DNA from: an uncultured bacterium
GTDB taxonomy: Bacteria > Krumholzibacteriota > Krumholzibacteriia > G020349025
Reading direction: 5' to 3'
NCBI GenBank assembly: GCA_964567755.1
Contig: CAZMNW010000020.1
Span: 7,401-71,400, forward strand
DNA length: 64,000 bases
Position 1 is the first letter of the stretch. Each line of letters starts with the position of its first letter. Below the pieces are notes generated by a model, which saw only the letters and a program-made list of their open reading frames with translations, ran no database searches and was not told where the DNA came from. A program made the translations under genes and the position numbers. Below, in pieces: positions 19,209 through 36,390 of the stretch.

Positions 19209-19284
19209 GGAGAATGTGTAGCGCAATCCCGGAGACGGGTTCGCCGTTTTCGGACCTCGATGGACTCCGGGAAAAGGCGCCGCG

Positions 19285-19991: not shown

Positions 19992-20534
19992 ATGAACCTG
20001 CTCATCGTCGGTCTCGGCATCGCAGGCCTGGCGGTCGTCGTATTCGCCGCGCGCAAAGTGGGTCTTGCCTACTGGCGGTCGCGTGGAGAACGGCTCGTCA
20101 CGTGCCCGGAAACGCAGGCGCCGGCCGGCGTGGAACTGGATGCGAAGGGCGCGGCGTTGGCGGCGCTGCGCGGCCAACGTCACTTCGAGCTCGAGAAGTG
20201 CACACGATGGCCCGAGCGCGCCGGCTGCGGACAGGATTGTCTGCAGGAAATCGCATCCACACAGGACGGTTGTCGGGTGCACGCCATTCTCGCGGCATGG
20301 TACACGGGGAAATCGTGTGTTCTCTGTGGCAGGGACTTGAGTCGCATCGACTGGACGAGCCATCGCCCGGCGTTGATGGATTCTGGCCGCAAGATCGTGC
20401 AGTGGGCCAACATGGCTGCAGTGGACGTGCCAGGGCTCTTGGAGACGCACCAGCCGGTGTGCTGGGACTGTCAGATCATCGAGTCGCTCGTCCAGCAGCA
20501 TCCGGAACGGGTGACTGTCCGTCCGCCGCACTGA
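19992..20534 (+). CDS. membrane-anchored Cys-rich (putative metal/redox-binding) protein
   Basis: RBS AGGAGGAAAGGAGGG. One N-terminal TM 'LLIVGLGIAGLAVVVFAA'. Ten Cys including 'CVLCG' and 'CWDCQ' pairs. Confidence 0.55.
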   Translation: MNLLIVGLGIAGLAVVVFAARKVGLAYWRSRGERLVTCPETQAPAGVELDAKGAALAALRGQRHFELEKCTRWPERAGCGQDCLQEIASTQDGCRVHAILAAWYTGKSCVLCGRDLSRIDWTSHRPALMDSGRKIVQWANMAAVDVPGLLETHQPVCWDCQIIESLVQQHPERVTVRPPH

Positions 20535-22146
20535 CAGGCTCGAGGAGACCGAGGAAGCTGCGGGTGATGGTGTCGGCATCCGCGTCAATGCGCCAGCAAC
20601 CGTGCGCGTTCCAATGCAGCGCCGGCAGCAACGAGTGCTGCCGATTGCGGTTCACTTCGGCGTGAGCTTGGTGCATGCGAGCAATCAATTGCTCGGTGTC
20701 CAGCTCTTGTGTTGCCGCCACCATGATCCAGGTCGGTGGCCGCGATGGATAGAGGAGATCGGTGCGCCGGATGTTGTCCTCGAGGAAATCCTGCAGAGCC
20801 TGGAGCGTGCTTGCGTCCGTGGAGTCGGCGGTGGCGGTGAGGAGAGACGCATACACGGCGTCATTACGCATCGATCGCACCCGCTCGAGATAGAGCGGCA
20901 AGAACAGGTGCGGCTCCTCGCGCGGCACGGTGAACGAGAACGTGCTGCCGGCCCCGAGCTGACTCTGCACGTGCAAGCGCCCGTAGTTGAGCAGCACCAG
21001 CTCCTTGACGATGTTGAGCCCGAGCCCGAAGCCCTTGGCGCTGGAGCGCGCGTTGCCGTCGAGCTGTTTGAAACGCTCGAAGATGATCTCCAGGTTCTCC
21101 GGCGCGATCCCAGGCCCGTGGTCGGTCAGCCCCACCTCGATTTCACGGTCGTCTGCGGCCGGACGCACCCACAGATGCACCGCCGTGCCGGCGTCGGTGA
21201 ACTTGACCGCGTTGACGCCGAGATTGATGAGGATGCGCCCAATCTTCTCGGGATCCCCGTAAATGCACGGCAGAGTCTCCGGAGCCTCCACCAGCAACTG
21301 CACCTGGGCTTTGGCCGCCTTGCGTTCGAGCGTCGGCAGCACGCGCGCGAAGATGTCGCTCATACGGCAAGGGCGCCGTGAAGTCCGCAGCAGATCCGCT
21401 TCGATGCGGCTGATATCGAGTAGGTCCTCGACGAGCACGTGCAGATCATCGACACGACGCATGATGGTGTCGAGATATTCGCGTTGCTGCTCGCTCGAAC
21501 CGCTCTCGAGTTCCTCGCCGACGGCAGCGGCGTATTCCTTGATCACCGTGAGCGGGGTCCGAAATTCGTGCGAGACGTTGTCGACGAATTGGTGTGCCGT
21601 GCTGTAGAGCTCGCGCAGGCGCTGATTTTGGTTCTCCAGCGAGGTTTTGGCCCCGGCCAGCTCATCCGCGTGGAGTCGGGATTCCTCGGTACGTTCGGTC
21701 ACACGCTCTTCCAGCGTTTCGTTCAGCTGGCGTAGCTCTTGTTCGATGCGTTTGCGTTCCACGATCTCACGATGTAGCTCTGCGTTGGTACTGGCGACGG
21801 CGCGGCCGTAGCTCTTGCAGTATTTGAGCTCGCGCCGCCGCGCTTCGAGGATCTGACCGCGCAGGTTGACCACCCGACGTTCTTGTTCGGTGAGGTACCA
21901 CACGAGCGCGGTGATCAGGAGCGACAGTCCGGCGAGTAGGGCCTGGTCCGTGTGTGCCCAGGGCCAGAGATGGGTGAACTCGCGGTTGAGCAATGGCGCC
22001 ATCGCGATGGCGAGCCCCGTGGTGGACAGCAGGCTGGTTGTGATGAGGATGAACCAGTTCTTGCGCGTGCGCTTCTCGAGCTGCGTGTGCTCCACGATGT
22101 CAGAGCGCAGCATTTCCTCGAGCGGCTGTTGGTATCGTAGATCCAT
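20476..22146 (-). CDS. sensor histidine kinase (two TM, coiled coil, HisKA, HATPase_c) with an extra roughly 150-aa C-terminal domain
   Basis: H-box 'VSHEFRTPLTVI'. N-box 'LINLGVNAVKFT'. G-boxes 'DHGPGI' and 'GFGLGLNIV'. Start at 'MDLRYQQ'. The 3' end overlaps the convergent 19992-20534 gene by about 59 bp. Confidence 0.85.
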   Translation of the reverse strand: MDLRYQQPLEEMLRSDIVEHTQLEKRTRKNWFILITTSLLSTTGLAIAMAPLLNREFTHLWPWAHTDQALLAGLSLLITALVWYLTEQERRVVNLRGQILEARRRELKYCKSYGRAVASTNAELHREIVERKRIEQELRQLNETLEERVTERTEESRLHADELAGAKTSLENQNQRLRELYSTAHQFVDNVSHEFRTPLTVIKEYAAAVGEELESGSSEQQREYLDTIMRRVDDLHVLVEDLLDISRIEADLLRTSRRPCRMSDIFARVLPTLERKAAKAQVQLLVEAPETLPCIYGDPEKIGRILINLGVNAVKFTDAGTAVHLWVRPAADDREIEVGLTDHGPGIAPENLEIIFERFKQLDGNARSSAKGFGLGLNIVKELVLLNYGRLHVQSQLGAGSTFSFTVPREEPHLFLPLYLERVRSMRNDAVYASLLTATADSTDASTLQALQDFLEDNIRRTDLLYPSRPPTWIMVAATQELDTEQLIARMHQAHAEVNRNRQHSLLPALHWNAHGCWRIDADADTITRSFLGLLEPVSAADGQSPVPDAAGRATR

Positions 22147-22349
22147 ACGGCCTGCGCCAGGCTCGGGTGTGTCTCGAAGAGGAATCGATGTGGCCCGAAC
22201 AGCAACCGACGTGCCACGCAATGTTGCGATCCCGACGCCTGGAGAATGGCGTGATGGTGCGGAATGTGGCGCCTGGTGTACCGTAAGGGCAACGGTGACG
22301 TTGCGGAACAGCTTGCGATGCGAAGCCGCTGGCACCTTGGAGATGGGTC

Positions 22350-23255
22350 ATGAACGTGCTGCTCACAGGCGCGTCGGGCTTGATCGGACGCGCGCTCACG
22401 GTGGGGTTGCACGCGCGTGGTCATTCCGTGCGGCCGCTCGCTCGTGGCGGGAAACCCGAGGCGTCCTGGGATCCACTGCGGGGCGTCCTGCCTGCGGATG
22501 TCATGAGCGGGATCGATGCGGTCGTGCATCTTGCCGGCGAGAGCATCGCGGGACTGTGGACCGGAGCGAAGAAGCGCGCCATCCGCGACAGCCGCTTGCT
22601 GGGCACCCGTCTGCTGTGCACGCGCATGGCCGAGCTGCCTCGGCCACCCTCGGTGTTGGTGACCGCCTCCGCCATCGGCTATTACGGGGATCGAGCCGAA
22701 GCGACTCTCACCGAAGCGGACGAGAGCGGGTCGGGATTCCTTGCTGAAACCTGCTTGAAGTGCGAAAGCGCGACCGCGCCGTTGGAAACGCTGGGAGTCC
22801 GCGTCGTCCGCGTGCGTTTCGGTCTGGTGCTCGCAGCGGATGGTGGCATCCTGGCACGCATGGTCGGGCCCTTTCGTTACGGCCTGGGTGGGCATCTGGG
22901 GGATGGCCGGCAGTTCATGAGCTGGGTTGGGCTCGAGGACGCAGTAGGGGTGCTGATGCATGTCTTGGACACTCAGAGTCTGCGCGGTGCCGTGAACGCG
23001 GTCGCGCCAGTTCCGGTCACCAACGCGGAGTTCACCCGCACGCTCGCTCGAGTCCTGCACAGACCGGCGCGGTTCCATGTCCCCGCATTCCTGTTGCGCG
23101 CGTTGTTCGGACGGATGGCGGACGAATGCGTGCTCGCCAGCGCGCGCGTGCTGCCACAACAGCTGGAGGCCAGCGGTTACCGCTTCCGCCATCCAGAGCT
23201 CGAATCGGCGCTGCGGCACGTGCTCGCCCTCCCAGATCCCGGGAAGACGTCGTGA
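22350..23255 (+). CDS. TIGR01777-family (YfcH-like) NAD-dependent epimerase/dehydratase with DUF1731
   Basis: 'MNVLLTGASGLIGRAL' Rossmann motif. Length is about 300 aa. Confidence 0.8.
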   Translation: MNVLLTGASGLIGRALTVGLHARGHSVRPLARGGKPEASWDPLRGVLPADVMSGIDAVVHLAGESIAGLWTGAKKRAIRDSRLLGTRLLCTRMAELPRPPSVLVTASAIGYYGDRAEATLTEADESGSGFLAETCLKCESATAPLETLGVRVVRVRFGLVLAADGGILARMVGPFRYGLGGHLGDGRQFMSWVGLEDAVGVLMHVLDTQSLRGAVNAVAPVPVTNAEFTRTLARVLHRPARFHVPAFLLRALFGRMADECVLASARVLPQQLEASGYRFRHPELESALRHVLALPDPGKTS

Positions 23256-24211
23256 GCCGCGCGGCTGGCAATCTGGTGATCGGCATCTCGTCCTGCGTTC
23301 TCGGCGAAGAGGTGCGCTACGACGGCGGCCACAAACGCGCCGCCTTCGTCACCGACGTGCTCGCGCGTTTCGTGCAATTCGTCTCGGTGTGCCCCGAGGT
23401 GGACCTTGGACTCGGAGTTCCGCGCGAGACGATTCACTTGGTGGCGCGGGAGAACGAGATTCGATTGTTGGGGACACGCAGCGAACGTGATCACACCGAC
23501 GCCATGCGTACCTACGCACGGCGCAAGATGAAAGAGCTCGAGCGCCTCGATCTTTCGGGCTACATCTTGAAGAAGGACTCCCCGAGCTGCGGCATGACGC
23601 GTGTCCGTGTCTATTCCGGCACCGGACCGGCGACGCGTGCCGGCGTCGGCATGTACGCCGCGGCGCTTCTGGCCGCCTTCCCCGATCTGCCCGTCGAGGA
23701 AGAGGGACGCCTGTTGGATGCGCGCCTGCGCGAGAACTTCGTCGAACGCGTGTTCGCCTATCGTCGAGTGCAAACGCTGTTCACGGCACGGTGGACGATG
23801 GGAGACCTGGTGCGCTTTCACACGGCTGAAAAGTTGCTGCACCTGGCGCACGACCCAGCCACCTACACGGCGCTGGGGCGCTTGGTGGCGACGGCGCGCG
23901 GGCGCGAGCGGCCGACGGTGGCTGCGACCTATCGCCGCACCTGCATGCAGGGACTGACCAAGCTGGCCACTGTGCGCAAGCATGTCAACGTGCTGCAGCA
24001 TATCCAGGGCTACTTCAAAAAGTGCGCGAGCGATGCGGACCGGCGCGAGTTGCAAGGGATCGTCGACGATTTTGGAGCTGGCCTCGTGCCACTCGTCGTC
24101 CCCATCACCTTGATCCGACATCTGGCACGTCGCTACGAAGTGGCGTATCTCGTCGGACAAACGTATCTCGAACCGCACCCGAAGGAGCTCATGCTGCGCA
24201 ATCACGTGTGA
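23252..24211 (+). CDS. YbgA-like DUF523/DUF1722 protein
   Basis: 'LVIGISSCVLGEEVRYDGGHK' is a DUF523 N-terminus. GTG start overlaps the upstream stop (GTGA). Confidence 0.75.
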   Translation: MSRAAGNLVIGISSCVLGEEVRYDGGHKRAAFVTDVLARFVQFVSVCPEVDLGLGVPRETIHLVARENEIRLLGTRSERDHTDAMRTYARRKMKELERLDLSGYILKKDSPSCGMTRVRVYSGTGPATRAGVGMYAAALLAAFPDLPVEEEGRLLDARLRENFVERVFAYRRVQTLFTARWTMGDLVRFHTAEKLLHLAHDPATYTALGRLVATARGRERPTVAATYRRTCMQGLTKLATVRKHVNVLQHIQGYFKKCASDADRRELQGIVDDFGAGLVPLVVPITLIRHLARRYEVAYLVGQTYLEPHPKELMLRNHV

Positions 24212-24364
24212 GACTCCCGGCCGCCGCCAGGCGTGCAACCAGGTTCCTGTACCGATCGGCATGCAGAGCTCGTGGCGTGCCTGCTAGTGTCCGGAACTCA
24301 TAGTCTCAGCAACTTTCTGAGACGCGTTGCGTAGCCCGAGTAGACTTTCGAGAGGAGGACTCGG

Positions 24365-24815
24365 ATGCGCGGAGGACCACGGTTGCCGATCTTGAACCTG
24401 AGCCCGTACGAGCGCAGCGAACGCCTCGAGCAATGGACTCGGCGTCCGAAGACGGGCCAAGGCTTGGCGCGACGCCCGCGTGAATCGTTCTATCCGCCGC
24501 GGGTGGAGCAATACGGCAGTCGGCGCCAAACCTGGGATGACAAAGCGAATCGTCGGCAAGTGGCGTAGTCGCTTTCTCGAAAAACGTTTGGACAGACTGT
24601 TCGATGAGCCGCGCCCGGGAGCACCGCGACGGGTCAGCGATGCGCGGGTGGAAGAAGTGATCACGAAGACTCTGGAGACGACCCCTCGCGATGCGACGCA
24701 TTGGAGCACACGCTCGATGGCGGAAGCGGTCGGGCTGAGCCATACAACGATCGTGGTAAGCGGTCATTCTGCGGAGCATTTCGTGATTTCGGCCGATGCC
24801 GTAGAAGAGGGCTGA
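24365..24815 (+). pseudogene. IS630-family transposase gene, frameshifted and 3'-truncated
   Basis: 'LSPYERSERLEQWTRRPKTGQGLARR' continues in another frame. 'GMTKRIVGKWRSRFLEKRLD...DEPRPGAPRRVSD...ATHWSTRSMAEAVGLSHTTIV' matches the IS630 Tnp N-terminal half. The coding sequence ends abruptly where IS66 begins. Confidence 0.7.
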
Positions 24816-24848
24816 CGAGAGCCGGTCCTTTTTTACGAATCGGAGGCG

Positions 24849-25136
24849 ATGATGGAATTGAAGTCGAGCCGTCGAGTGCAGCGCAGCGCGTCTGATTGGC
24901 AAGCAATCCAGCAGCGGTTTGAGGCTAGCGGTCGAAGTCTGGCGGCATTCTGCCGTGCCGAGGGGATCTCGCGCAGCTCGTTCGATGTCTGGCGGCGGAA
25001 GCTGCGAGTGCCCAAGAGCGCAAAGAAGGCGGCGCGGGAGTTCGTCGAGCTGACGCCTGTGTCCGCGCCGATGATCGGCGGCTGGACGGTGGAGATCGAG
25101 CTGCCGGATGGTCGGCTCGCCCGGCTGCGGTGTTAA
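24849..25136 (+). CDS. tnpA: IS66 accessory protein TnpA
   Basis: 95 aa. 'SDWQAIQQRFEASGRSLAAFCRAEGISRSSFDVWRRKL' is an IS66 Orf1 HTH. Confidence 0.7.
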   Translation: MMELKSSRRVQRSASDWQAIQQRFEASGRSLAAFCRAEGISRSSFDVWRRKLRVPKSAKKAAREFVELTPVSAPMIGGWTVEIELPDGRLARLRC

Positions 25137-25139
25137 GCC

Positions 25140-25517
25140 GTGCTGTTCGCGCACGGACCGCGGCGGATCCTGGCCTACCGACGCCCCGTCGACATGCGAA
25201 AGTCGATTGATGGGCTGGTGGCCCTGGTGCAAGGCGCGCTGCAGGAAGACGCACTCTCCAGCAGCCTGTACGTGTTCTTCAACCGGCGCGGGAACTATCT
25301 GAAGTTGGTGACGTGGGATCGGACGGGATTCAGTTTGTTTGCAAAGCGTCTCGAGCACGGCCGATTCGTTCTTCCGGGTGAAGCGGAGAAGGTAGAGTTG
25401 AGTGCGCGTGCATTCGAATTGATTCTTGATGGAATAGTTCTTGGAGCACGGCGCATGCATCGTGTAGAAAGGATGCATGACGCCGCTGGAAGAGAAGGCC
25501 GGATCGCTCAACCGTGA
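25140..25517 (+). CDS. tnpB: IS66 accessory protein TnpB (Orf2)
   Basis: 'PVDMRKSIDGLVALVQ...LYVFFNRRGNYLKLVTWDRTGFSLFAKRLEHGRF' is a canonical IS66 Orf2. Confidence 0.75.
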   Translation: MLFAHGPRRILAYRRPVDMRKSIDGLVALVQGALQEDALSSSLYVFFNRRGNYLKLVTWDRTGFSLFAKRLEHGRFVLPGEAEKVELSARAFELILDGIVLGARRMHRVERMHDAAGREGRIAQP

Positions 25518-26301
25518 CGAGATCGTGAAGCTGTTGGTGTCGGAGCAAGAGCTCACGACGCGGGTCGCGGAACTGCAGCGGCAACTGGAGTGGTTCAAGC
25601 GCCAGATGTTTGGCTCCAAGTCGGAACGCCGGATCCTGTCGCCGGATGGCCGGCAGCTCGGGCTGGGCGAACAGCTCGGCGCGACGACACCGGCCGCGGC
25701 AGTCACGGACGAGACGGTTCGCAGCTACGTCCGTCGGCGCCGGAAGGATCCTCTCGAGGGCGCTTCGGACGACAGCGGTCTGCGCTTCGATCCATCGGTT
25801 CCAGTGCGCGAGATCCAGATCCCAAACCCCGAGATCGCGGATCTGCCTCCAGAGAGCTACACCGTCATCGGCAAGAAGGAGACTTGTCGGCTGGCCCAGG
25901 AGCCGGGCGCGTACGTGGTGCTTCGATACGTGCGCGAGGTGGTGAAGCTCAAGAAGGAAGGAACCTTCTCGTGTCCGCCGGCGCCGCCCTCGGTGTTGGA
26001 GAAGAGTTTCGCGGACGTGAGCTTGCTGGTGGGAATCCTCATCGACAAGTTCCGCTTCTATTTGCCGCTTTACCGCCAGCATCAGCGCTTGGCGGCGAGC
26101 GGGATCCACCTGGGCCGGTCGACTCTGACGCAATGGGTGCACGCGGTGATCGCGCTGTTGGAGCCGATCTACATGGCACAGTGGGAATCGGTGCTGTCGA
26201 GCTCGTTGCTGATCATGGACGAGACGCCGCATCGAGACCCATCCGGCACGGGACGTCCATTTGCTCACGCCGCGATTGTGGAAGCAGCACTTCGCCGCTG
26301 A
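25477..26301 (+). pseudogene. tnpC: IS66 transposase TnpC, N-terminal 274 aa only
   Basis: Coiled-coil leader 'ELQRQLEWFKRQMFGSKSER' and 'RFYLPLYRQHQRLAASGIHLGRSTLTQWV' match IS66 TnpC. The catalytic DDE part is missing. Confidence 0.7.
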
Positions 26302-26583
26302 CCCCTTGCGATCCGATCTCGATCGCATCCGTCAACGCTCCGCTGCCTGACCGCTTTTTGCCGGCGTTTCCCCCAGAATCGCAAAGGTTCCTCGAAATCG
26401 CGCCGCCGCGAAAGACTCTGTTCTTCTACCGCTTACCGATCGTGAATCTGGGCGTCGCACGTCGCACGACCCCAGTCGACGCATGACCGTCTTGGCGAAT
26501 CTCAGGTTGCGAGCGATGAATCGATGAATGGGGACCCAAGGATAGCGCCAGGAGGACGCGAAGGTCGATGCGCCCCTGCGCCA

Positions 26584-28368
26584 TCAGATCGCGCGATAAT
26601 GCCTCGGACCGTAGTGCAGGATGCGGTAGGGCTGGATCACATAGACATCGTCGCCGGCTCGTCCCCAAACCCGACTTCCACCTAGCGTCTCACTCAGGAA
26701 CGTCCACCGTGAACCGTCGTAGTGAAGGGACACGTGAGCGCCGACCGCATAGATGTCTCTGGAGGACTCTCCCCAGATGCCAGTGAGAGTGTCGGTGGAG
26801 GGACTCGTCATGGGCGTCCATTTGCCGTTCTCGAAATGCAGAATGGTTCCTTGAGCTCCAACGGCAACGAGGCATTGCGAATCTCCCCAGATCGCTTGAA
26901 GGCTCTCGGTCGTGTTGCTCACCATTAACTGCCATGACTTTCCGTCGTAATGGAGAATTGTACCGTCCTCGCCAACTGTATACACTTCGGAACCTGAGCG
27001 TCCCCACACGTCGTTCAAACCCACCGTAGTGTTGCTTTCCATAGTCACGAGGGTAGTCCCGTCGAAATGTGCAATCGCTCCATCCCAGCCAACAAAGAAA
27101 ATGTCACTAGAGTCACCACCCCACACGTGCGCTAGCCCTTCCGGGAAATGGGCCACTCGCAATCTCGTTCCATCAAGAAGCAGGGCAACAAGACCATAAT
27201 CCCCGATCGCGACCAAGGTATTGCCGGGGCCCGACCAAAGGTCCGAGATTGGTGCGCCATCGTCCATATAGATGTTGCGCCATGATGACCCATCAAAACG
27301 CAAGAGGCCTATGTAGTCACCTCCGACATAGATGTCTTGGTCGTTTCCGGAGATTGCCGTCAGATCCCGGTTGAAAGGCAGCAAATACTCACTCCGTTCC
27401 TGATTCCATGTCGCACCATCGAAGTGGAGAATAGTGGGAGGAACCCGTTCGTCTTCTCCACTGCCGACAACGAACACCTCGCCGTCCGGGCTCTCCCATA
27501 GATCTCGGATAGCAAGTGAGTACATTCCGTGACTAAGCCGCCAACCCTGCCCATCGTAATGATAGATGACATTCCCACCGGCGACGTAAACGTCATTGCT
27601 TGTAGAGCCCATGACTGTATTGAAGATAGGCCCGTAAGGCATTCTCGTGAGAGTCCACGTCCGGCCATCGTAGTGCAGAACGGTACCGTTCGGTCCAACG
27701 GCATACACGTCGTCACGAGAAGATGCCCAGATGTCATTTAGAGATTCGCTTGTCGTGAGAATCTCCGTCCACGAAGTGCCATCGTAGTACAGGACCGAAT
27801 GTTGTAGGGCCGCGAAAAGCTCACCAGTCGGAAGCCCCGAGATAGCGTAAATGTCCTCGGTGGTTCCGCTCTCTATGGGTGTCCATGATGAGCCGTCATA
27901 GCGCTGGATCATCCCGCCACCACCAGCCGCAAGCACATTGTCGACGGAAGTGCCCCAAAGATCATGAATGGGAGCAGTGGAATTGATACTCATGGGGGAA
28001 ACGACGGATCCATCAAAATGATACATGTAGTATTCGTAGACCCGGCTCCCACCGACGATGCTGCGTGAATAGCCGACGACAAAAATGTCCCGCGGTGACA
28101 CGCACAGTAGGGCGCTCCAATGAGAGAGTGGAGCATGGAACGGGATCGATACAGTCCATAGGGTGCCGTCATAATGCAAGAGGGTTCCGGCATGGCCAAG
28201 AGCATAGACATTGGTGCTCGAGCAACCGGACACGCCGGCGAGATCCTCACATGTCGCAAGAACGCTCCAGGATGAGTCCGGAACTGGCACTGGTGCCATT
28301 GGAGACATGGCGCATGAGCTTACCATTATCGTCAGGGAAAGAAGGGTGTATGGGGGAGCGAACATTCT
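26584..28368 (-). CDS. beta-propeller lipoprotein with about 14 BNR/Ycf48-like repeats
   Basis: Lipobox 'IMVSSC'. A roughly 42-aa unit 'WGxSxxDVYAVGxxGTILHYDGxxW' repeats about 14 times. Locally about 52-57% GC. RBS GAGGAA. Confidence 0.75.
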   Translation of the reverse strand, partial: RMFAPPYTLLSLTIMVSSCAMSPMAPVPVPDSSWSVLATCEDLAGVSGCSSTNVYALGHAGTLLHYDGTLWTVSIPFHAPLSHWSALLCVSPRDIFVVGYSRSIVGGSRVYEYYMYHFDGSVVSPMSINSTAPIHDLWGTSVDNVLAAGGGGMIQRYDGSSWTPIESGTTEDIYAISGLPTGELFAALQHSVLYYDGTSWTEILTTSESLNDIWASSRDDVYAVGPNGTVLHYDGRTWTLTRMPYGPIFNTVMGSTSNDVYVAGGNVIYHYDGQGWRLSHGMYSLAIRDLWESPDGEVFVVGSGEDERVPPTILHFDGATWNQERSEYLLPFNRDLTAISGNDQDIYVGGDYIGLLRFDGSSWRNIYMDDGAPISDLWSGPGNTLVAIGDYGLVALLLDGTRLRVAHFPEGLAHVWGGDSSDIFFVGWDGAIAHFDGTTLVTMESNTTVGLNDVWGRSGSEVYTVGEDGTILHYDGKSWQLMVSNTTESLQAIWGDSQCLVAVGAQGTILHFENGKWTPMTSPSTDTLTGIWGESSRDIYAVGAHVSLHYDGSRWTFLSETLGGSRVWGRAGDDVYVIQPYRILHYGPRHYRAI

Positions 28369-28558
28369 CATGACTTGATTCCTCAATCCAAGAGGGGGTG
28401 AAGGGGAGGGATGCTTTTTCCTTCGGGGTCTCGACAGGTGAAGAGCGCCGTATTCATTATGCACTCCCGATGCTGTCCAGCAAGAACCGGTGCAACCCAG
28501 GCGCCCAGGGGGGAGAAGAAATGTGCAACTTGCCCCACGGGTAACGAAAGGAGGGAAG

Positions 28559-29037
28559 TCATTGGAATCGCGTTACCCTATGATCTGGAATCTTTCTGAA
28601 CCTTTTCTCTCTCCGTCGCAAGGCTCGGTCCCGCTCTCGCGGGACCGGCTCGTATCGTGTCGTCATCCGAGGCTGCCTTATCAGTCGGCAGGCACGCCTC
28701 TCCGAGTAACCCTTCTTCTCCTCCAACCACCGCACCGCCCGTCGCCGACTGGACGGGCTTACCAGTTTTTTCGACTCAGCTCCTTGAGAGCGTCGATGTC
28801 CATCGCCTGGTCGGCCACGATCTTCTTCAGCCGGCTGTTCTCGCGCTCGAGCTCCTTGCGCCGACGCGCCTCGTCCATGGTCAAAGAACCGTACTGCTTG
28901 CGCCAGCGGTAGTACGTCTGCTCGTTCACCCCAAGGCGTTTGCAAACCTGCGCGACGCTGGCTCCCTCCGCCACCGCCTTGTCTGCCTCACGCAGCTTGC
29001 TGACCACCTGCGGCGCTGTGTGTCGCTTGCGTTTCAT
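28559..29037 (-). mobile_element. IS3-family remnant (orfA intact, orfB truncated after about 65 aa)
   Basis: orfA and a -1-frame orfB overlap at the slippery heptamer A AAA AAC (revcomp of 28774-28780 region). The orfB fragment is 'RRAVRWLEEKKGYSERRACRLIRQPRMTTRYEP'. Confidence 0.75.
28759..29037 (-). CDS. IS3-family transposase OrfA (HTH)
   Basis: 'KRKRHTAPQVVSKLREADKAVAEGASVAQVCKRLGVNEQTYYRWRKQYG' matches the IS3/IS911 OrfA family. Confidence 0.8.
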   Translation of the reverse strand: MKRKRHTAPQVVSKLREADKAVAEGASVAQVCKRLGVNEQTYYRWRKQYGSLTMDEARRRKELERENSRLKKIVADQAMDIDALKELSRKNW

Positions 29038-29401
29038 CGAGAATCCTCCTGCCCGTCCGGGCTGCTAAGACTCTCATAACACTTGGATCAGATTTCGGGG
29101 AGCACATCACCTCGACCTGCCGCTCAGTGGGCTTGACTCAGCTCCGGGGAGCTGATGGACCTCTCAGTCGATCTCTACACCCAAACCCATTGGAAGGTTG
29201 GTGTCCAACCCATGTTGGCAGAGAGGGCGCCCCGGGAAAGAAGGTCCAGAGAAACGCCATCAGAATGGTTGTTTTCATTGGACCCGTTCAGTGGGTTGAC
29301 ATGGAGGTCCTGGTGCGAAAATGATTTGACCTGCCGCCGCAACTGCCGCACCCTCGGTTGTATCTACGCTTCGACGGTTGCCGCAAGAATGGGGGACAGA
29401 G

Positions 29402-30799
29402 ATGAAAAGCCTGACTGGCCTAGTGTTGTTGCTGGCGCTAGTGGGGGCGTTGGGTTGGTCATGTAGTAAGGAGAGCCTACCGCCGGTAGCAGTAGAGGTA
29501 TCAGATGGTCCATCAAAGGGCGATCCCCCTGAAATGGACTACGTTGACCCACCGGAGTGCGACCCGGATTGTGGGACGAATCAGTACTGGGTATGGGTAG
29601 ATAGTGCAATTGTGCAGCAAGCAGATACGAGCGGTGCTGAATGGGATTCTCTGCGCATCTTCGCTAAGGACTCCTTCAGCAGCAGCAGCACCCACCCTAG
29701 ACACGCGACACTCTGGAACAAAGATAGTGCGGCCGGAGCTTTGGCAATGGCAAAGGCCTTGGTCTCCATCCGCATGAGCCGGACGGGTGAAAGCCAAAAC
29801 TACCACGCGCAAGTGGTTGGGGCACTCGACCACCTAATGGCAGATTCACTGAATGGCCACGATTTGGACTGGGAGGATGAACAACTTTCATTGGCACGTA
29901 ACCTCCCCGCTTGGATCATCGCAGCAGACTACCTATTCGCTGCAGTTGGACCCAATCGCAGGGACGACTTCCGCGACCTCATAAGATCCCTAACATCAAA
30001 CGCGCTCTCAGATGACGAAACCGGCGATAGGGATGGGCGCTCACTCAAGGCTGACGTGCGCTATCGTGCCAACAATCGTTCTGCTTGGAGCATAGCAGCG
30101 TTGGCCTGTGCCGGGTCATATATCGGTGAGGGCTACGATGGTGGGCGGTTGGCGCTGGCAGCGAAGTGCTACAAAGGTTACGTCGGTGATCTCACTGGAT
30201 CATCGGCTGTGTATGTGTACAGGGATAGCGCTGGGGGCCAGAACGGGCTCACCTACACCGCGTGGGATTCTCTATACAGCGGCATGGCAAACAACTTCGC
30301 CCCAATAGCTATCCGGAACACAGCGACATTCCATTACGACGGCTGTACCGATGAGTTGTACACGCGCGACGTAAAGGGAATGATGACACAGGACATGAAC
30401 GAAGACGGAGAGAAGCCAACACAGCAGACGAATTGCTACTACGACGCCGGTAATAAGGCGCCGACGTACATCAAGAGCGCAATGGGCGCAGTTGCGATTG
30501 CGGCGTTTGTGTTGGGCAAGACCCCAGGTCACAGCTACCTGGTAATCTTCCAGCATGGTTATGGTGGTTCGAGCGGGGAAGGGTTACTAGCTGCAGCGGA
30601 GTTCTGGACGGAAGAGGAGGCCGCTGAGAATCTTGGTTCAACGCACCTTTGGGAGTTTGCCGCACACGAGAAGAGCTCATGGGTACCGTTCCTGGTGAAC
30701 GGGCTCACCAACGTGAATGAGATAACAGAGCCGTCGCAAGAGGGTAAAGCAGGGCTTCGTTACCTCGCCGGAACGAAGTGGCTTAAGAGCTATTTCTGA
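29402..30799 (+). CDS. lipoprotein, alginate-lyase/heparinase-like (polysaccharide lyase superfamily) candidate
   Basis: Lipobox 'LGWSC'. 'RANNRSAWSIAALACAG' resembles the AlgL 'NNHSYW(A)AW' motif. About 55% GC, lower than the background. Confidence 0.55.
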   Translation: MKSLTGLVLLLALVGALGWSCSKESLPPVAVEVSDGPSKGDPPEMDYVDPPECDPDCGTNQYWVWVDSAIVQQADTSGAEWDSLRIFAKDSFSSSSTHPRHATLWNKDSAAGALAMAKALVSIRMSRTGESQNYHAQVVGALDHLMADSLNGHDLDWEDEQLSLARNLPAWIIAADYLFAAVGPNRRDDFRDLIRSLTSNALSDDETGDRDGRSLKADVRYRANNRSAWSIAALACAGSYIGEGYDGGRLALAAKCYKGYVGDLTGSSAVYVYRDSAGGQNGLTYTAWDSLYSGMANNFAPIAIRNTATFHYDGCTDELYTRDVKGMMTQDMNEDGEKPTQQTNCYYDAGNKAPTYIKSAMGAVAIAAFVLGKTPGHSYLVIFQHGYGGSSGEGLLAAAEFWTEEEAAENLGSTHLWEFAAHEKSSWVPFLVNGLTNVNEITEPSQEGKAGLRYLAGTKWLKSYF

Positions 30800-31032
30800 G
30801 GAAAAGGCACCAGTGGGTGTACATCAAGTGGTTGTTGAGCATGGTCGATGTGAACCGCTGACAAGGTGGCAGCTGGGATACATCCGGAGTCCATCATGTT
30901 CGTCTACGGACCGGGAAAACGCGTAGGAATGTTTTTGACACATCGAGACTAGAATGCAGCTGCGATCCTCGCCCGTGGTTGTTGGCGCGCTCAGGGCGCC
31001 AACCTCGGGTCGAGAAACGGACGGAGAACTCG

Positions 31033-32487
31033 ATGCGCGCGGATGAAGTGCTCGAGCGCGCCGCGGCGCGTTGCCGGGAACGCCAGATCCGCATCCCGAC
31101 CTTCGCGCAGATGTGCGACCCCAACCTCATTCCGGAGGGAGTGCGACGCGCGTTGCGTCACGTCGGGCTCCAGGACGTGGACCCGCTCAATCTTTTTCGC
31201 ATTACCTGGAAGAACGAGCCCGTCGACAAAGGCGGCCTCTTCCACACCGGCAACTGGATCGAGTTCCCGCCGGCTCTGACCGGTGTCGATGCGCGCATCG
31301 TCGGCCTGGTCGGCAAGTGGTTCCCGACCGGAGCGCACAAGGTGGGCGCAGGCTTCGGCTGCCTGGTGCCGCGCTTGGTCGCGGGGCAATTCGATCCGAC
31401 GACGCACAAGGCGGTTTGGCCTTCCACAGGCAACTTCTGTCGCGGCGGCGCCTTCGATTGCGCGCTGCTCGGGTGCGAAGCGGTCGCCATTCTGCCGGAG
31501 GAAATGAGCCGCGAGCGCTTCGAGTGGTTGCGGCGTCTCGGCGCCGAGGTCATCACGACGCCCGGTGGCGAATCCAATGTCAAAGAGATCTACGACGCCT
31601 GCTGGGAGATTCGGCGCACGCGGCCGGACTGCGTCATCTTCAACCAGTTCGAAGAGTTCGGCAACGCGGTCTGGCACTATCACGTGACGGGCGGCGCCAT
31701 CGATGAAATCTTCCGCGCCGTGGCGCGGCCGGGGGATCGCCTGGCGGCTTTCGTCGCCGCCACGGGCTCGGCAGGAACCATCGCCGCCGGCGACTTCCTG
31801 CGCCGAGGTCACCCGCAGCTCCGCACCGTCGCCGCCGAGGCGTTACAGTGCCCGACGTTGTTGCACTGCGGCTACGGCGAGCATCGCATCGAGGGCATTG
31901 GCGATAAACACATTCCCTGGATCCACAACGTGCGCAGCACCGATGTCGTGTGCGCCGTGGACGATGCACAATGTCTGGCGCTGATGCGCCTGTTCAACGA
32001 GCCGGAAGGGCATTGTTTCCTGGCCGGTGAAGGCGTGGACGCATCGTGGTTGCCGCAGTTGCCGCTGCTCGGAATTTCGGGCATTTGTAATCTGATCGCC
32101 TCCATCAAGACCGCGCGCATGTTCGATCTCTCGTCGCACGACGTGCTGTTCACTTGCCTCACCGACTCGATGGATCTCTACCACAGCCGCTTGCACGAGC
32201 AACGCGAGGCTCGAGGCGCCTACAGCGGCATGTTGGCGGCCCGGCACTTCGGACGTTACCTGCAGGCCATCGGCACCGACTCCATGCGCGAGCTGAGCTA
32301 CGCCGACCGCAAGGCCCTGCATCATCTCAAGTACTTCACCTGGGTCGAGCAGCAACAAAAGAGCGTGCGCGACCTCGATCGGCTGTGGGATCCAGAGTTC
32401 TGGCACCAGACCTATGCGCAAGTCGACGAATGGGATCGTTCCATCGCCGCCTTCAACCAGCGCGTCGGTCTCGATCGAGGGGTCTGA
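31033..32487 (+). CDS. PLP-dependent fold-type II (TrpB/CysK superfamily) enzyme with a roughly 130-aa C-terminal extension
   Basis: 'FPTGAHKVGAGFG' lysine motif (compare TrpB 'HTGSHKINN'). 'TGSAGTIAAG' glycine loop. RBS GGAG. Confidence 0.75.
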   Translation: MRADEVLERAAARCRERQIRIPTFAQMCDPNLIPEGVRRALRHVGLQDVDPLNLFRITWKNEPVDKGGLFHTGNWIEFPPALTGVDARIVGLVGKWFPTGAHKVGAGFGCLVPRLVAGQFDPTTHKAVWPSTGNFCRGGAFDCALLGCEAVAILPEEMSRERFEWLRRLGAEVITTPGGESNVKEIYDACWEIRRTRPDCVIFNQFEEFGNAVWHYHVTGGAIDEIFRAVARPGDRLAAFVAATGSAGTIAAGDFLRRGHPQLRTVAAEALQCPTLLHCGYGEHRIEGIGDKHIPWIHNVRSTDVVCAVDDAQCLALMRLFNEPEGHCFLAGEGVDASWLPQLPLLGISGICNLIASIKTARMFDLSSHDVLFTCLTDSMDLYHSRLHEQREARGAYSGMLAARHFGRYLQAIGTDSMRELSYADRKALHHLKYFTWVEQQQKSVRDLDRLWDPEFWHQTYAQVDEWDRSIAAFNQRVGLDRGV

Positions 32488-32491
32488 GGGG

Positions 32492-33772
32492 ATGGCCCGG
32501 ACTTCGACGAGCGCGCGACTGGGGACCCTTCTCGCGCTCAGCTCGGTCGTTTTTTCTTTTGCTGCCTTCGAGGCGTTGGTGCGTCTTGCCCGGCCCGATC
32601 TCGCCATCCCCCAAGCAGCAGGACACTTCCGCTTCACCCAAACCTTCGAGTTCGAGCTGCCGCACCACCGGCGCGACCCGGTTCTCGGCTGGAGACTGCA
32701 GCCGGGTGTCTACGGCCCGATGCGCATCAACAGCCACGGCTTCCGCGGTCCCGAATGGTCGAGCGGCAAGGCCGCGACCAAGCGCATCGCACATCTTGGC
32801 GATTCCTCGACGATGGGATTCACGATCGCGGACGACAGCCACGTCTATGCCTCGCTCTTGCCGCGTCTGCTGCAGCGGGATGGGTTGGAGCTCGAGGCGC
32901 TCAACTTCGGCGTCGACGGCTACTCCTCGCATCAAGGACGGATCCTGCTCGAGCAAGTGCTCGGTGATTTCACCCCGGATTATGTGAGCCTCTATTTCGG
33001 CTACAACGATCATCATTTTTCCAACGCCAGCGATCGGGAGACGCGATTCTCGACCCCGTGGATTCTACGGGCGCTGGAGCACAGCCACGTGTATCGCTTC
33101 ATGCGCCGGCACCTGCTGCGGTGGACGCGCCGCGAGGCCGAGCTCCTCGAACCGACGCGGCGCGTCGATCCGGAGACCTTCGAAGCGAACCTGCGCACCA
33201 TGGTGGAAGCGGCGCGTGCGCGTGGCGCGGTACCGATCCTGATGACGACGCCGCTTCGACCAGGCATGCCCCTGGTGGAGAACGAAGTGCGGATCGAGCA
33301 GGACGGCAAGCCGGCGTGGGTGACACAGGATTGGTGGGTGGCGACCGAGCTCCAGAAGCGCGGCCTCGATCTCGAACGCGCGGTGGGGTCGGAAGATCTG
33401 CGGCGCTTCTTGGTCGAATCGTTGCAGGCACACCCGGATTGGGCGTACTTGCACTTCCTGCAGGCGCGCGAGCTCGAGCGTGCTGGCGATTTCCAAGGTG
33501 CGCGCGCGGCGCTCGGGCGCGTGTCGCTGCACGACCGCGAGCGCGGCATTCTCGAACAGTACAACGAGCGCGTACGCAATGTGGCGCGAAGTCTGCAAAC
33601 GGAGCTCGTCGACATCGCACGCATGTGCGAGGCCCGGCCATCGCCGCATCTGTTCAATGACGTCGTCCACCCGAGCCCGGCCGGTCACAAGTTGATCGCC
33701 CAAGCGCTCGCCAAGGCGCTGTTGCGCCTCGAAGGCCGCAAGCCGACACCCGGCGGGCCGGAGGAAGGCTGA
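32492..33772 (+). CDS. SGNH/GDSL hydrolase-family protein with an N-terminal TM anchor
   Basis: 'IAHLGDSSTMG' (GDSx block I). 'DVVHPSPAGHKLIA' (DxxH block V). It starts 4 nt after the PLP-enzyme stop. Confidence 0.75.
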   Translation: MARTSTSARLGTLLALSSVVFSFAAFEALVRLARPDLAIPQAAGHFRFTQTFEFELPHHRRDPVLGWRLQPGVYGPMRINSHGFRGPEWSSGKAATKRIAHLGDSSTMGFTIADDSHVYASLLPRLLQRDGLELEALNFGVDGYSSHQGRILLEQVLGDFTPDYVSLYFGYNDHHFSNASDRETRFSTPWILRALEHSHVYRFMRRHLLRWTRREAELLEPTRRVDPETFEANLRTMVEAARARGAVPILMTTPLRPGMPLVENEVRIEQDGKPAWVTQDWWVATELQKRGLDLERAVGSEDLRRFLVESLQAHPDWAYLHFLQARELERAGDFQGARAALGRVSLHDRERGILEQYNERVRNVARSLQTELVDIARMCEARPSPHLFNDVVHPSPAGHKLIAQALAKALLRLEGRKPTPGGPEEG

Positions 33773-33777
33773 GCGGC

Positions 33778-34722
33778 GTGCCCGAGCTGCCAGATGTGTT
33801 GCTCTACATCGAACGGCTCGAGCCGCGAGTCTTGGGCCAGACGCTGCAGCGCGCGCGGCTCGTGAGCCCATTTCTGCTGCGCACGGTCGATCCACCACTC
33901 CGAGACACCGAGAAAAAGCGTGTCCTGGCGCTCCGCCGTCTCGGCAAGCGCATCGTGCTGGGACTCGAAGACGAGCTCTTCCTCGTGCTGCATCTCATGA
34001 TCGCGGGCCGGCTACGCTGGCGCGCCACTGGCGAACCGGTGCCGCGCAAGCGCGGGCTCGCCGCTTTCGATTTCTCGACCGGCACGCTTCTTCTCACCGA
34101 GGCGAGCACGAAGAAGCGCGCGTCCCTCTACGTCGTGCGCGGCGAAGCGGCGCTCGCAGCGCTCGATCCTGGCGGCCTCGAGGTCTTGGAAGCCGATGTC
34201 GGCGCGTTTGCGGCAGCGCTGCGGCGCGAGAATCGCACCCTCAAACGCGTGCTCACCGATCCGCGCCTGCTGAGCGGCATCGGCAATGCGTATTCCGACG
34301 AAATCCTGCACCGCGCGCGCCTGTCGCCACTGCAGCGCACGCAACATCTCGACGACGCGGCGATCGCGCGGTTGTATCGCGCCACACAAGAGACACTGCG
34401 AGAATGGTTGCAGAAGCTGCGGCAGGAAACCGGCGATTCGTTTCCGGAGAAAGTGACGGCGTTTCGTCCCGGCATGGCTGTGCACGGCCGGTATCGCCAG
34501 CCGTGCCCCGTGTGCGGCAACCCTGTGCAGCGCATCGTCTACGCCGAGAACGAGTGCAACTATTGCGCGATCTGTCAGACCGATGGCAAGCTGCTGGCGG
34601 ATCGCGCCCTGTCGCGTCTGCTGCGCGAAGATTGGCCGCGGACGCTGGACGAGCTGGAAGAGATGAAGAGCGAGCGACGGCAGGGGGATGCCGACCGCAA
34701 GGGCGATTCTCCAGGGAAGTGA
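33778..34722 (+). CDS. Fpg/Nei-family DNA glycosylase/AP lyase
   Basis: N-terminal 'PELPDV' (catalytic Pro2 after GTG-Met). 'LLSGIGNAYSDEILH' is the H2TH. The C-terminal C4 zinc finger is 'CPVCG...CNYCAIC'. Confidence 0.85.
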   Translation: MPELPDVLLYIERLEPRVLGQTLQRARLVSPFLLRTVDPPLRDTEKKRVLALRRLGKRIVLGLEDELFLVLHLMIAGRLRWRATGEPVPRKRGLAAFDFSTGTLLLTEASTKKRASLYVVRGEAALAALDPGGLEVLEADVGAFAAALRRENRTLKRVLTDPRLLSGIGNAYSDEILHRARLSPLQRTQHLDDAAIARLYRATQETLREWLQKLRQETGDSFPEKVTAFRPGMAVHGRYRQPCPVCGNPVQRIVYAENECNYCAICQTDGKLLADRALSRLLREDWPRTLDELEEMKSERRQGDADRKGDSPGK

Positions 34723-34725
34723 ACG

Positions 34726-36381
34726 TTGGGATCTGGCACGAGCGGCACGGACAGATGGCGGCTCGCGGTGCTCCTGCTGGCAGCCGCGGGAGTGCTGATC
34801 ATTGGTTGGAAACTGCTGTGGTTCCTGACCGACGACTCCTTCATCACATTTCGTTACGTGAGCAACAGCGTTCGCGGTCACGGTTACGTGTGGAACCCGC
34901 CTCCCTTTCTCCCCGTCGAAGGTTACTCGAGCTTCCTCTGGGTGCTGATTCTGGACGGCGTTTGGCGCCTCACGGGATCGCCGCCGCCCGCGGTGGCGAA
35001 CTACCTGACGCTCGCGTGTTCGTTTCTCTCCCTCGCCCTCGCTGCGGTCCTGGTGCTCCGCCTGCGCTGGCGCGCGGATCTGGTTGCCTGGCGCTTCGTC
35101 TTCGCCGCCTTGGTGCTTTTGGGTCTCACCACCAACCGTACCTTTCTCACCTGGGCGAGCTCGGGGTTCGAGACGGCGCTGTTCAACCTCCTTGTCTTCG
35201 CGTGGCTCGCCCTCGGCGTCGGCGCGGGTGCCATGCGGCCGCGGCGCGTCGTCGCCTTGTCGGCTCTGGCTGCATGCTTGCACCTGGCCAGACCCGAAGG
35301 AGTTCTGTTCGCCGCGGCGACGATTGCCATGTTCACGCTCGCCCCCCGTGAGCTGGCGTGGTGGCGATCCCCGCGTGCTCTTGCTGCCTACACACCGCTG
35401 CTCTTGATTCCCCTCCACCTCCTGTGGCGCCACTCGTTCTACGGCGAGTGGTTGCCGAATACGTACTACGCCAAGGTCGTCGGTGTCTGGCCCGCGAGCG
35501 GCGCGCGCTATGCGCTATCCTTTGTACTCGAGTACGCTCTGTGGTTTTCGCTCGTGGTGATGCTCGTCGCAGCAGCGACGCAAAAGCGCGTGGCCACGGT
35601 GCGCTCGGCTTCGCAGTCAGTGGCAGCGTGGATCTGTGTCCTCACCCTCGTGGCGCACGTCTCGTATTACACCTTCATCGTCGGTGGCGATCATTTCGAG
35701 TATCGCGTCTACAGTCACTTGCTCGCGCCTGGCTTCGTGGGTCTGGTGTGGCTCGCGAACAAATCACGGCTGCGTGGTCGCGTGGTTGCGACCCTCCTCG
35801 CCGCCCAAATTGCCCTGGCGCTGCCGCTGCCATGGAGCCATTGGGCGCTCAGCCGCCACCTCGAGACACGCGAAACGACACGGCGCATGCGCGTGGCGGT
35901 GGCGCCGCATTGGCCACCTTTGTTGCGGGAGTACGTACGACTTTTCGATGGTCTGCAAGCCTGGCTGATCGAGCACTGGGTGTGCGTGCGACACCAAGAG
36001 CACAAGGTGAACCAAGAGTATCTCGTGACCCTCTACCCATCGCGCGCCGAAGGCGAGCAGTTGCCGGCTGCAGACTTTCCCATCCACGCCTTCCAGGCCG
36101 TCGGCGTGGCATCGTGGACATTGCCGCACGTCAACGTCATCGACCTCCTGGGGCTCAACGATTGGGTCATCGCCCGGAGCCCAGTGGATGCGACACGATT
36201 GCGCGGCATGGCGCACGAACGCCGGGCGCCCGATGGATACGCTGACTGCTTCGAGCCCAATGTGTTTCTTGCGCCCGGTGGAGGTGTGCGGATCACGATG
36301 CGCCCGGTCCCACTCACCGCTGCCGCGATCGAGTCTTGCGAACGTGATTGGTCGGCCCGGGTGCGAGATTCTGGTCGCTGA
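34726..36381 (+). CDS. polytopic membrane protein, GT-C-fold glycosyltransferase-like
   Basis: About 12 predicted TM helices. First loop carries 'LTDDSFITFRY' (a DD motif as in GT-C ArnT/PMT). Start is ambiguous (TTG at 34726 or GTG at 34768). Confidence 0.5.
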   Translation: MGSGTSGTDRWRLAVLLLAAAGVLIIGWKLLWFLTDDSFITFRYVSNSVRGHGYVWNPPPFLPVEGYSSFLWVLILDGVWRLTGSPPPAVANYLTLACSFLSLALAAVLVLRLRWRADLVAWRFVFAALVLLGLTTNRTFLTWASSGFETALFNLLVFAWLALGVGAGAMRPRRVVALSALAACLHLARPEGVLFAAATIAMFTLAPRELAWWRSPRALAAYTPLLLIPLHLLWRHSFYGEWLPNTYYAKVVGVWPASGARYALSFVLEYALWFSLVVMLVAAATQKRVATVRSASQSVAAWICVLTLVAHVSYYTFIVGGDHFEYRVYSHLLAPGFVGLVWLANKSRLRGRVVATLLAAQIALALPLPWSHWALSRHLETRETTRRMRVAVAPHWPPLLREYVRLFDGLQAWLIEHWVCVRHQEHKVNQEYLVTLYPSRAEGEQLPAADFPIHAFQAVGVASWTLPHVNVIDLLGLNDWVIARSPVDATRLRGMAHERRAPDGYADCFEPNVFLAPGGGVRITMRPVPLTAAAIESCERDWSARVRDSGR

Positions 36382-36390
36382 GTGCGGGGA

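Follow-up and report, generated by a model that had tools for sequence, protein, structure and literature searches.

An IS630-framed islet with two lipoprotein genes of foreign composition between ybgA and a PLP-enzyme gene of an uncultured Krumholzibacteriota bacterium

The question raised by this locus is how a block of foreign-looking DNA came to lie between a ybgA-like gene and the gene of a pyridoxal phosphate (PLP)-dependent enzyme in an uncultured bacterium of the Krumholzibacteriota, and what was brought in with it. The locus belongs to a stretch of 64,000 nucleotides (nt) of contig CAZMNW010000020.1, which is called the window here, and a first-pass annotation of its letters had proposed a horizontally acquired island at 24250-30950. 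Each component that it listed is present, namely an IS630 pseudogene, a partial IS66 element and an IS3 remnant (IS, insertion sequence), a 14-repeat beta-propeller lipoprotein and an alginate-lyase-like protein. Horizontal acquisition is supported by the composition of the DNA, by empty sites in two relatives (L088 and L090) and by IS630 ends with a duplicated TA, and we consider insertion together with horizontal transfer to be the highly probable origin of the island. Its exact extent is 24287-30949 (6,663 bp) in the ybgA-PLP intergenic spacer, and the boundaries first proposed were at most 40 nt off.

The two closest relatives found are a 32.9-kb NCBI contig (L088), whose PLP enzyme is 81% identical in amino acids (aa), and L090, whose PLP gene is 90% identical in aa and 88.8% in nt. 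In both, ybgA stands directly beside the PLP gene, 153 bp away in L088 and 113 bp away in L090, and the order seen in the window is thus not conserved. The L088 contig carries, in this order, a histidine kinase (HK) gene, an epimerase/DUF1731 gene, ybgA, the 153-bp spacer, the PLP gene, a GDSL gene and fpg, and it is colinear by blastn with 17239-24212 and 31048-37250 of the window, so that precisely the island is absent. L090 starts within ybgA, and the ybgA stop codon lies 113 bp ahead of the PLP start codon ATG. Both empty sites hold a single CTAG (L090 gtgactgCTAGaatgcagc, in longer form ...ggtgactgCTAGaatgcagcggcgatc...; L088 ...ggCTAGaatgcc...), where the window has two, as located by comparison with the empty sites:

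24284..24287, no strand (TA at 24285-24286): left copy of the target CTAG
30949..30952, no strand (TA at 30950-30951): right copy of the target CTAG

With a slash marking the junction, the left side of the island reads gtgcctgCTAG/tgtccgg (in longer form ...cgtgcctgCTAG/tgtccggaactc) and the right side ...acatcgaga/CTAGaatgcagctgcgatc. When the island was deleted in silico and the halves were joined at one CTAG, the resulting 156-nt spacer aligned with L090 over its length. IS630 makes a 2-bp TA duplication at CTAG (PMC2577343 Table 1, citing Tenzen & Ohtsubo 1991). The insertion studied here hit CTAG and duplicated its TA, which is the hallmark of IS630, and the junctions are exact. A target duplication arises when both ends are used in one transposition event, and a single IS630-family element must therefore have brought in the whole 6,663 bp between the TA copies or have been the place where they accumulated. 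The insertion is of the transposase type. A repeat search (seed 10) found no long repeats, direct or inverted, on the two sides of the island, the target duplication being just 2-4 bp, and neither tRNA genes nor Rfam families were found in the whole 64-kb window, nor an integrase in the island; the empty tRNA and Rfam scans show that this is not a tRNA-targeted island.

The same comparison bears on the possibility that the region is ancestral and was deleted in L088 and L090. The relatives are few, the nearest standing at about 89% nt identity, and the slot itself is variable, since the Latescibacterota chromosome CP070763.1 (L002, 8080-9996) has other genes in it, photolyase-like and small lipoprotein open reading frames (ORFs) of host-like GC content as judged from their translations. 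This pairing of ybgA with a photolyase recalls the ybgA-phr arrangement of Escherichia coli. In a further locus, L089, a different gene lies upstream of the PLP gene. Nevertheless, insertion predicts a single CTAG at the very place of the two in the window, two independent deletions would not be expected to leave it, and the foreign composition also speaks against loss, which makes differential deletion scarcely credible. The two cargo genes are absent at the syntenic site in L088, L090 and L002.

The source is a metagenome-assembled contig, in which a misjoin through IS repeats might have created such a structure, and a Logan assembly does break at 26332, just right of the IS66 element. The break suggests that the source genome has more than one copy of the IS66 sequence, perhaps together with about 70 nt past it. 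However, the Logan contig SRR9952632_217683 (from SRR9952632) independently reproduces 26332-46397 of the window including the right junction, and the two junctions hold matching halves of one target site with the TA/CTAG duplication, as a chimeric join would not. An assembly artefact is therefore most improbable.

The element that frames the island is visible just inside the junctions, together with fragments of two other IS families:

24287..24364, forward strand: IS630-family left end, non-coding, with the left imperfect inverted repeat, directly upstream of the transposase start
24365..24755, forward strand: IS630-family transposase pseudogene, 5' third (NF033545, E 1.5e-15, model positions 11-98 of 299; PF13565 HTH_32, helix-turn-helix, E 8e-13)
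24756..26300, forward strand: truncated IS66-family element (NF047593, E 1e-16; NF033819, E 2e-28; NF033517, E 5e-29; PF05717, PF03050, PF13007)
28559..29097, reverse strand: IS3-family fragment (PF01527, E 1.3e-16; NF033516, E 8e-13, model positions 5-81 of 369)
30860..30949, no strand: putative IS630-family right end, an imperfect inverted repeat of the left end by gapped local alignment, abutting the duplicated TA

The IS630 transposase fragment begins 78 nt in from the left junction, is oriented as expected, is frameshifted near 24470-24485 and is cut off by the IS66 insertion. Only this fragment survives, its NF033545 score of 57 bits lying below the full-length cut-off of 100, and nothing of the DDE catalytic domain was found past model position 98, so there is no autonomous element; with the transposase dead, the cassette is by now fixed in place. 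When the first 90 nt of the island were aligned with the last 90 nt in reverse complement, the score was 33, against 18.3 +/- 3.7 for natural segments of the window, a score reached by 10 of the 2,664 natural segments and by 2 of the 1,276 segments internal to the island. The score supports long imperfect inverted repeats at the putative IS630 ends but stops short of being conclusive. The IS66 element keeps the order tnpA (24849-25136), tnpB (25140-25517) and tnpC, of which the 5' half is left from 25477; tnpC covers positions 13-161 of the 387 of NF033517 and the homology fades at about 26258. Its left end was placed at GTAAGCGG (24756) from what we take to be the IS66 terminal repeats, and at this position it interrupts the IS630 transposase reading frame. 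The IS3 fragment consists of a left inverted repeat ending at about 29097, orfA (28759-29037) and the first 70 or so codons of orfB, after which it is truncated; no other part of a complete IS3, with a whole orfB for the DDE domain and two inverted repeats, was found. As a separate observation, 26 nt of the IS3 terminal repeat (29068-29093) match L007 708-733, on a Phycisphaerae metagenome-assembled genome (MAG) contig, exactly, which suggests that a closely related IS3 element occurs in a different phylum. The IS elements are not mere debris: both ends of a single IS630-family element enclose the entire island. IS630 is its vehicle or its landing pad.

Several points count against this account. 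The terminal inverted repeats are weak, the gapped alignment of about 75 nt being about 60% identical with an empirical p of about 0.002-0.004, and their tips are offset by 8 nt, with 5 of the 8 tip positions matching. No second copy of this IS630 is at hand to fix the true ends. The left junction and the IS630/IS66 part are found in one assembly only, the Logan contig stopping at 26332, and the nearest relative is no closer than the identity of about 89% given above.

Whether the DNA inside the frame is foreign was judged by its composition. The guanine plus cytosine (GC) content was profiled in 500-nt windows, with the 115 such windows outside 24250-30950 as controls, and 49 chunks of equal size served as controls for tetranucleotides. 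Two cargo genes and the spacer before them are concerned:

26301..26583, no strand: spacer of about 300 nt from the IS66 breakpoint to the propeller stop codon, without assignment
26584..28371, reverse strand: cargo gene 1, propeller lipoprotein of 595 aa, 14 repeats of about 40 aa with the motif h-[YF]-D-G-x-x-W
29402..30799, forward strand (ORF 29378-30799): cargo gene 2, probable lipoprotein of 465 aa, beginning MKSLTGLVLLLALVGALGWSC...

The control windows had a mean GC of 0.650 (standard deviation 0.023, minimum 0.574), against a mean of 0.561 and a range of 0.53-0.61 in the core that holds the cargo (26500-31000), with a bump to 0.61 at 28500-29250. The IS630/IS66 part (24250-26500), at 0.619, is just mildly reduced. 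The tetranucleotide correlation with the remaining window was 0.63 for 26584-30978 against 0.961 +/- 0.017 for the controls (minimum 0.913), and 0.927 for 24250-26500; the dinucleotide delta* of the core was 118 against 52 +/- 19 (maximum 106). The propeller gene (GC 0.548) and the lyase-like gene (GC 0.554) have a GC content at third codon positions (GC3) of 0.594 and 0.612, against 0.76-0.82 in five flanking genes (HK, epimerase, PLP, GDSL and fpg), and the non-coding stretches of the cargo are likewise GC-poor. The IS66 tnpA and tnpC and the IS3 orfA pieces have a host-like GC3 of 0.77-0.82 (IS3 orfA 0.82). The foreign composition is confined to the cargo, and the GC dip covers about 4.5 kb and not all 6.7 kb. 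The GC dip first described is therefore real, and 52-58% holds for the core, but it had been drawn too long, and the 68-70% given for the flanks was too high, the PLP gene standing at 0.645 and the adjoining 500-nt windows at 0.63-0.67. Sliding GC and GC3 were both computed, and neither profile is uniform. Outside the island, the two lowest 500-nt windows (9501-10000 with a GC of 0.574 and 48501-49000 with 0.580) are isolated.

A low GC might instead be intrinsic to both gene families, through amino-acid composition, repeats or the codons of secreted proteins, and the genes might be old residents. Homologs of the propeller gene also lie under their host background in L082 (0.607 vs 0.684) and in L083 (0.579 vs 0.66). 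Against this, GC3 is largely independent of protein composition and still stands at 0.59-0.61 vs 0.76-0.82, the non-coding DNA of the cargo is low as well, and the genes are missing from the three syntenic sites named above; moreover, the gene pair in L083 lies again in a mobile element. Repeated transfer from a lower-GC pool would account just as well for low GC in several hosts. We therefore regard an intrinsic origin of the low GC as improbable.

By the reading that we favour, insertion with horizontal transfer, an IS630-family element inserted at the TA of a CTAG in the short ybgA-PLP spacer and duplicated the TA. Between the TA copies now lie this element and its load. The left end of IS630 comes first, with the 5' third of the transposase gene, and then an IS66 element that inserted into this gene and was truncated afterwards. 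Foreign DNA of 4.6 kb follows, in which an IS3 fragment separates two intact, divergent lipoprotein genes, and a putative IS630 right end of about 80 nt closes the element. By one route, the composite would have been built elsewhere and moved here in a single IS630-type step with transposase supplied in trans, as a mobile insertion cassette or transporter IS does; by another, a plain IS630 would have come first and its interior would have been replaced later through IS66- or IS3-mediated events. Stepwise nesting in place, in which an IS630 of about 1.1 kb was followed by IS66 and later by the cargo, for instance through a compound transposon flanked by IS66 or IS3 or through recombination between IS elements, and by deletions of the remaining IS66, IS3 and IS630 transposase sequence, is a sub-variant of the favoured reading and differs from it in the order of events alone. 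IS66 plainly breaks the IS630 frame at 24756, both IS66 and IS3 have lost their cargo-facing ends, and the host-like GC3 of the IS genes (0.77-0.82) against 0.60 of the cargo suggests different residence times. On the other side, nesting needs at least three more events, one insertion and two deletions sparing both IS630 tips and both cargo genes, and no right ends or target duplications of IS66 and IS3 are left in its support. We give such nesting a real chance, somewhat below even. On the route of cargo loading the indications point both ways: the host-like GC3 of IS66 and IS3 leans to remodelling in place, and the number of events leans to movement en bloc.

The structure can be set beside three known systems. 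Like IS elements of the IS630/Tc1/mariner type it duplicates the TA of CTAG, encodes the N-terminal HTH region of NF033545 and has short non-coding ends; it differs in that about 30% of the transposase gene is left, in its length of 6.66 kb against about 1.1-1.2 kb, in the further IS elements and passengers of its interior, and in inverted repeats that are long, imperfect and weakly supported. Mobile insertion cassettes (MICs), or transporter ISs, are IS ends framing passenger genes (PMC3129680). The island resembles them in that IS ends bracket two genes that have no part in transposition, and, without a working transposase of its own, its movement would need a related IS acting in trans; classic MICs are far smaller, however, and the island differs also in its fragments of two further IS families, which look more like decay. 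Nor was a second copy found that would prove movement as a unit: no part of the island recurs in the 64-kb window, and 1.3 Mb of fetched loci hold no further copy of the ends or of the cargo. An IS630 composite transposon (Tenzen & Ohtsubo 1991, cited in PMC2577343) likewise used IS630 ends to move extra DNA into the TA of CTAG; as cited there, it had two complete IS630 copies, whereas the ends of one element are present here. The spacer that separates the IS66 breakpoint from the propeller gene has no assignment: the ORF 26426-26668 (reverse strand), part of which falls within it, has no Pfam match, six-frame translation gives no long ORF, and its sequence is not repeated elsewhere in the window or the fetched loci.

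The first cargo gene lies in an ORF of 26584-28464 on the reverse strand, and its likely start is M32 of this ORF, where a GAGGA ribosome-binding site was read. The signal peptide ends in ...LLSLTIMVSSC, with the lipobox V-S-S-C, whose Cys is conserved in the homologs (alignment A4); the lipoprotein calls for both cargo proteins are rule-based readings of signal peptide and lipobox. The AlphaFold2 (AF2) model has a predicted local distance difference test score (pLDDT) of 88.3 and a predicted template modelling score (pTM) of 0.86, and Foldseek gave template modelling (TM) scores of 0.68-0.73 to the tandem seven-bladed propellers 1nr0, 8otz_f and 7ung_e, so the 14 blades are predicted to fold as two seven-bladed beta-propellers. 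The 1,944 homologs, the best of them 54-60% identical, often carry extra extracellular domains. They do not give a donor lineage, the closest propeller proteins (54-60%) being found on high-GC contigs where they look foreign too. Among known proteins, the eukaryotic double propellers of the Aip1 type share the 14 blades in two propellers (TM 0.68-0.73). The periplasmic glycan sensors of the BT4663 type, from Bacteroides hybrid two-component systems, were among the top matches by E value, but their TM score is about 0.36 and the cargo propeller is a stand-alone lipoprotein without signalling domains. It also differs from the WD40 and Reg_prop families in having no sequence membership in either. 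The public gene calls of 549 aa (propeller) and 350 aa (lyase-like) begin downstream of the signal peptides; the homolog alignments back starts at 28371 for the propeller (595 aa) and at 29402 for the lyase-like protein (465 aa).

The second cargo gene is followed by 150 nt of non-coding DNA. Its product begins with MKSLTGLVLLLALVGALGWSC-SKESLPP, which matches P0122 (…LLAGAYC-TKEQIPP) and the copy in L083 (…LVVAGC-STKEQVPP), and this match supports the long start and the lipoprotein anchor. The lipobox ...LLLALVGALGWSC is non-canonical, with the Cys and the following [ST]KE..PP conserved in P0122 and in L083 (VVAGC). The family is very rare. A word-based homolog search returned the protein itself alone, and an exhaustive HMMER search found 18 proteins among 1.84 billion representatives, just two of which exceed 35% identity; the scan of viral_contigs gave no relative, and when metagenomes were scanned with the alignment of the family a single distant locus came out. 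The distant members P0126-P0129 and P0132 pass the Pfam model Alginate_lyase (PF05426) with 30-49 bits against a cut-off of 22.2. The lyase-like protein has no NCBIfam match and no direct sequence match in the PDB. From the alignment of 18 sequences, AF2 gave a helical model (pTM 0.73, pLDDT 64.5), and all 50 of the top 50 Foldseek matches in the PDB were (alpha/alpha)-toroid polysaccharide lyases (PL), from PL17, PL5, PL38, PL8 and glycosaminoglycan lyases (one chondroitinase). The model thus points, by remote similarity, to a polysaccharide-lyase-like (alpha/alpha) toroid fold. A fold search of BFVD gave weak matches only, the best being a structural protein of a Cellulophaga phage (E 0.06). 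The family conserves the motifs ARNLxxY/WxIAAD, R-x-N-N and GD, with R222 invariant and Y240 nearly so. Lyases of PL5 and PL17 carry NNH (NNHSYW in AlgL), and their catalytic set is Asn-His ... Arg ... Tyr. The Asn-Asn is conserved here (N224, N225), and the next residue is Arg in the window protein, Trp in most members and His in one. The family profile against PDB sequences, and P0128 alone against the PDB, gave no usable match for mapping catalytic residues. With the PL5 (AlgL, A1-III), PL17 (Alg17c) and PL38 lyases the protein shares the region of the Asn-Asn motif and, through its distant relatives, the Pfam match, and the top structural matches of its predicted helical toroid are all lyases of such families; the protein differs from them in the missing His after Asn-Asn, in its lipoprotein anchor and in the rarity of its family (18 representative clusters). 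For both cargo proteins PHROGs and PADLOC gave no match, and a reading of the cargo as a defence system, which was also considered, has no support from either.

Relatives of the cargo elsewhere stand in mobile contexts. L083, a 19-kb metagenome contig with flanks of 66-70% GC, holds homologs of both cargo genes 1.4 kb apart (propeller 54% and lyase-like 39% aa identity, the latter copy frameshifted). The segment that contains this pair measures 7.27 kb and has at its borders direct repeats of 216 nt that are 97% identical (4831-5046 and 12105-12320). Judged from the translations, it further includes an ORF that resembles a tyrosine recombinase and an N-terminal fragment like that of IS66; its GC is 0.57-0.63, and that of the propeller homolog 0.579 against 0.66 in the flanks. 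Two further observations were made on this contig: the right repeat overlaps the 3' end of a flavin adenine dinucleotide (FAD)-oxidoreductase gene (12103-13734, reverse strand), and a 145-nt piece is duplicated (1-145 and 8255-8399), overlapping an ORF that by eye resembles a peptidase fragment (7962-8396, reverse strand). L082, the locus of the best propeller homolog, has a gene GC of 0.607 against 0.684 in the rest of the contig and no lyase-like neighbour, the adjoining protein of 449 aa being dissimilar and, by eye, Ser/Thr kinase-like. P0122 (530 aa), the sole full-length close relative of the lyase-like protein, is encoded on L085 (1-7716) and L086, contigs of 58-59% GC, where it ends a run of 13 small genes on one strand that includes a Sak4-like single-stranded DNA-annealing protein (phrog_124); this setting resembles the early region of a phage or prophage. 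Too little sequence surrounds P0124 and P0125 to be informative.

What the cargo may do was judged from fold resemblance, lipoprotein signals and genomic linkage. The surface glycan or extracellular polysaccharide (EPS) remodelling first suggested agrees with the remote fold of a lyase and with the signals of a lipoprotein, although no Pfam family matches the lyase-like protein itself and the His of NNH is missing from it. Tentatively, we see in the cargo a mobile accessory module of envelope proteins that bind and cut or modify an acidic polysaccharide. Several observations weigh against it: the lyase-like protein itself matches no Pfam family, its model is of medium quality (pLDDT 64.5) with a best Foldseek E of just 8.7e-3 and a TMq of about 0.41-0.42, and it has NNR, and most of its family NNW, where PL5 and PL17 enzymes have NNH. 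The pair is divergent in the window and convergent in L083, which makes the two genes linked neighbours and not a fixed operon, and the third close lyase-like locus has no propeller gene, its contig ending 230 nt past the gene. A bolder idea, which we put forward as speculative and rather unlikely, is that the pair forms an undescribed two-gene mobile module among high-GC uncultured bacteria of soil and sediment, travelling on an IS630-framed cassette, an integrase island or a phage and conferring an envelope activity on acidic polysaccharide (EPS turnover, modification of a capsule or of a phage receptor); by this idea the IS630 composite would work as a non-autonomous transposon in its own right and mobilise 4.6 kb of cargo.

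The genes on both sides of the island are host genes and lie outside it:

23252..24211, start approximate, forward strand: left flank, ybgA-like gene with a 2-thiouracil desulfurase domain and DUF1722 (Pfam PF04463, E 3e-42; PF08349, E 1e-35)
31033..32487, forward strand: right flank, PLP-dependent (cysteine-synthase-like) enzyme (PF00291, E 7.5e-20)

The ybgA-like gene is colinear with L088 8915-9848 at 72% nt identity. In the protein search, the PLP enzyme was 90% identical to P0140, 86% to P0141 and 81% to P0142, and the best named relatives by this enzyme were the Latescibacterota chromosome CP070763.1 (76% aa) and a Krumholzibacteriia MAG (74%). The conserved TAGAAT after the right CTAG is a candidate -10 box for the PLP gene. 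The insertion swapped out whatever stood upstream of this likely -10 box; at 30934-30955, the putative IS630 right end offers a perfect TTGACA 10 nt upstream of TAGAAT, which is too close for a sigma-70 hybrid promoter. A sigma-70 promoter scan of the island gave 4 sites against 2.5 +/- 1.6 in shuffles, that is, no excess. Further downstream, the window shows a strong negative AT skew (-0.35 to -0.46) at 34750-35750, within the conserved ORF 34723-36378; this ORF has homologs in L088 and L002, for which no Pfam match is on record, and may encode a membrane protein.

IS-borne islets of foreign composition are common, and the event described here is of an ordinary class that changes no general principle. 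It does give a base-pair-exact view of how accessory genes enter an uncultured lineage, in which the unoccupied site is known, the target is duplicated and the vehicle has a name. In the public annotation, both cargo genes begin too far downstream and lose their signal peptides. The most interesting part is the rare lyase-like family with its recurrent mobile context: it comprises 18 clusters in 1.84 billion, its three closest members all stand in mobile contexts, and it makes a reasonable candidate for biochemical characterisation.

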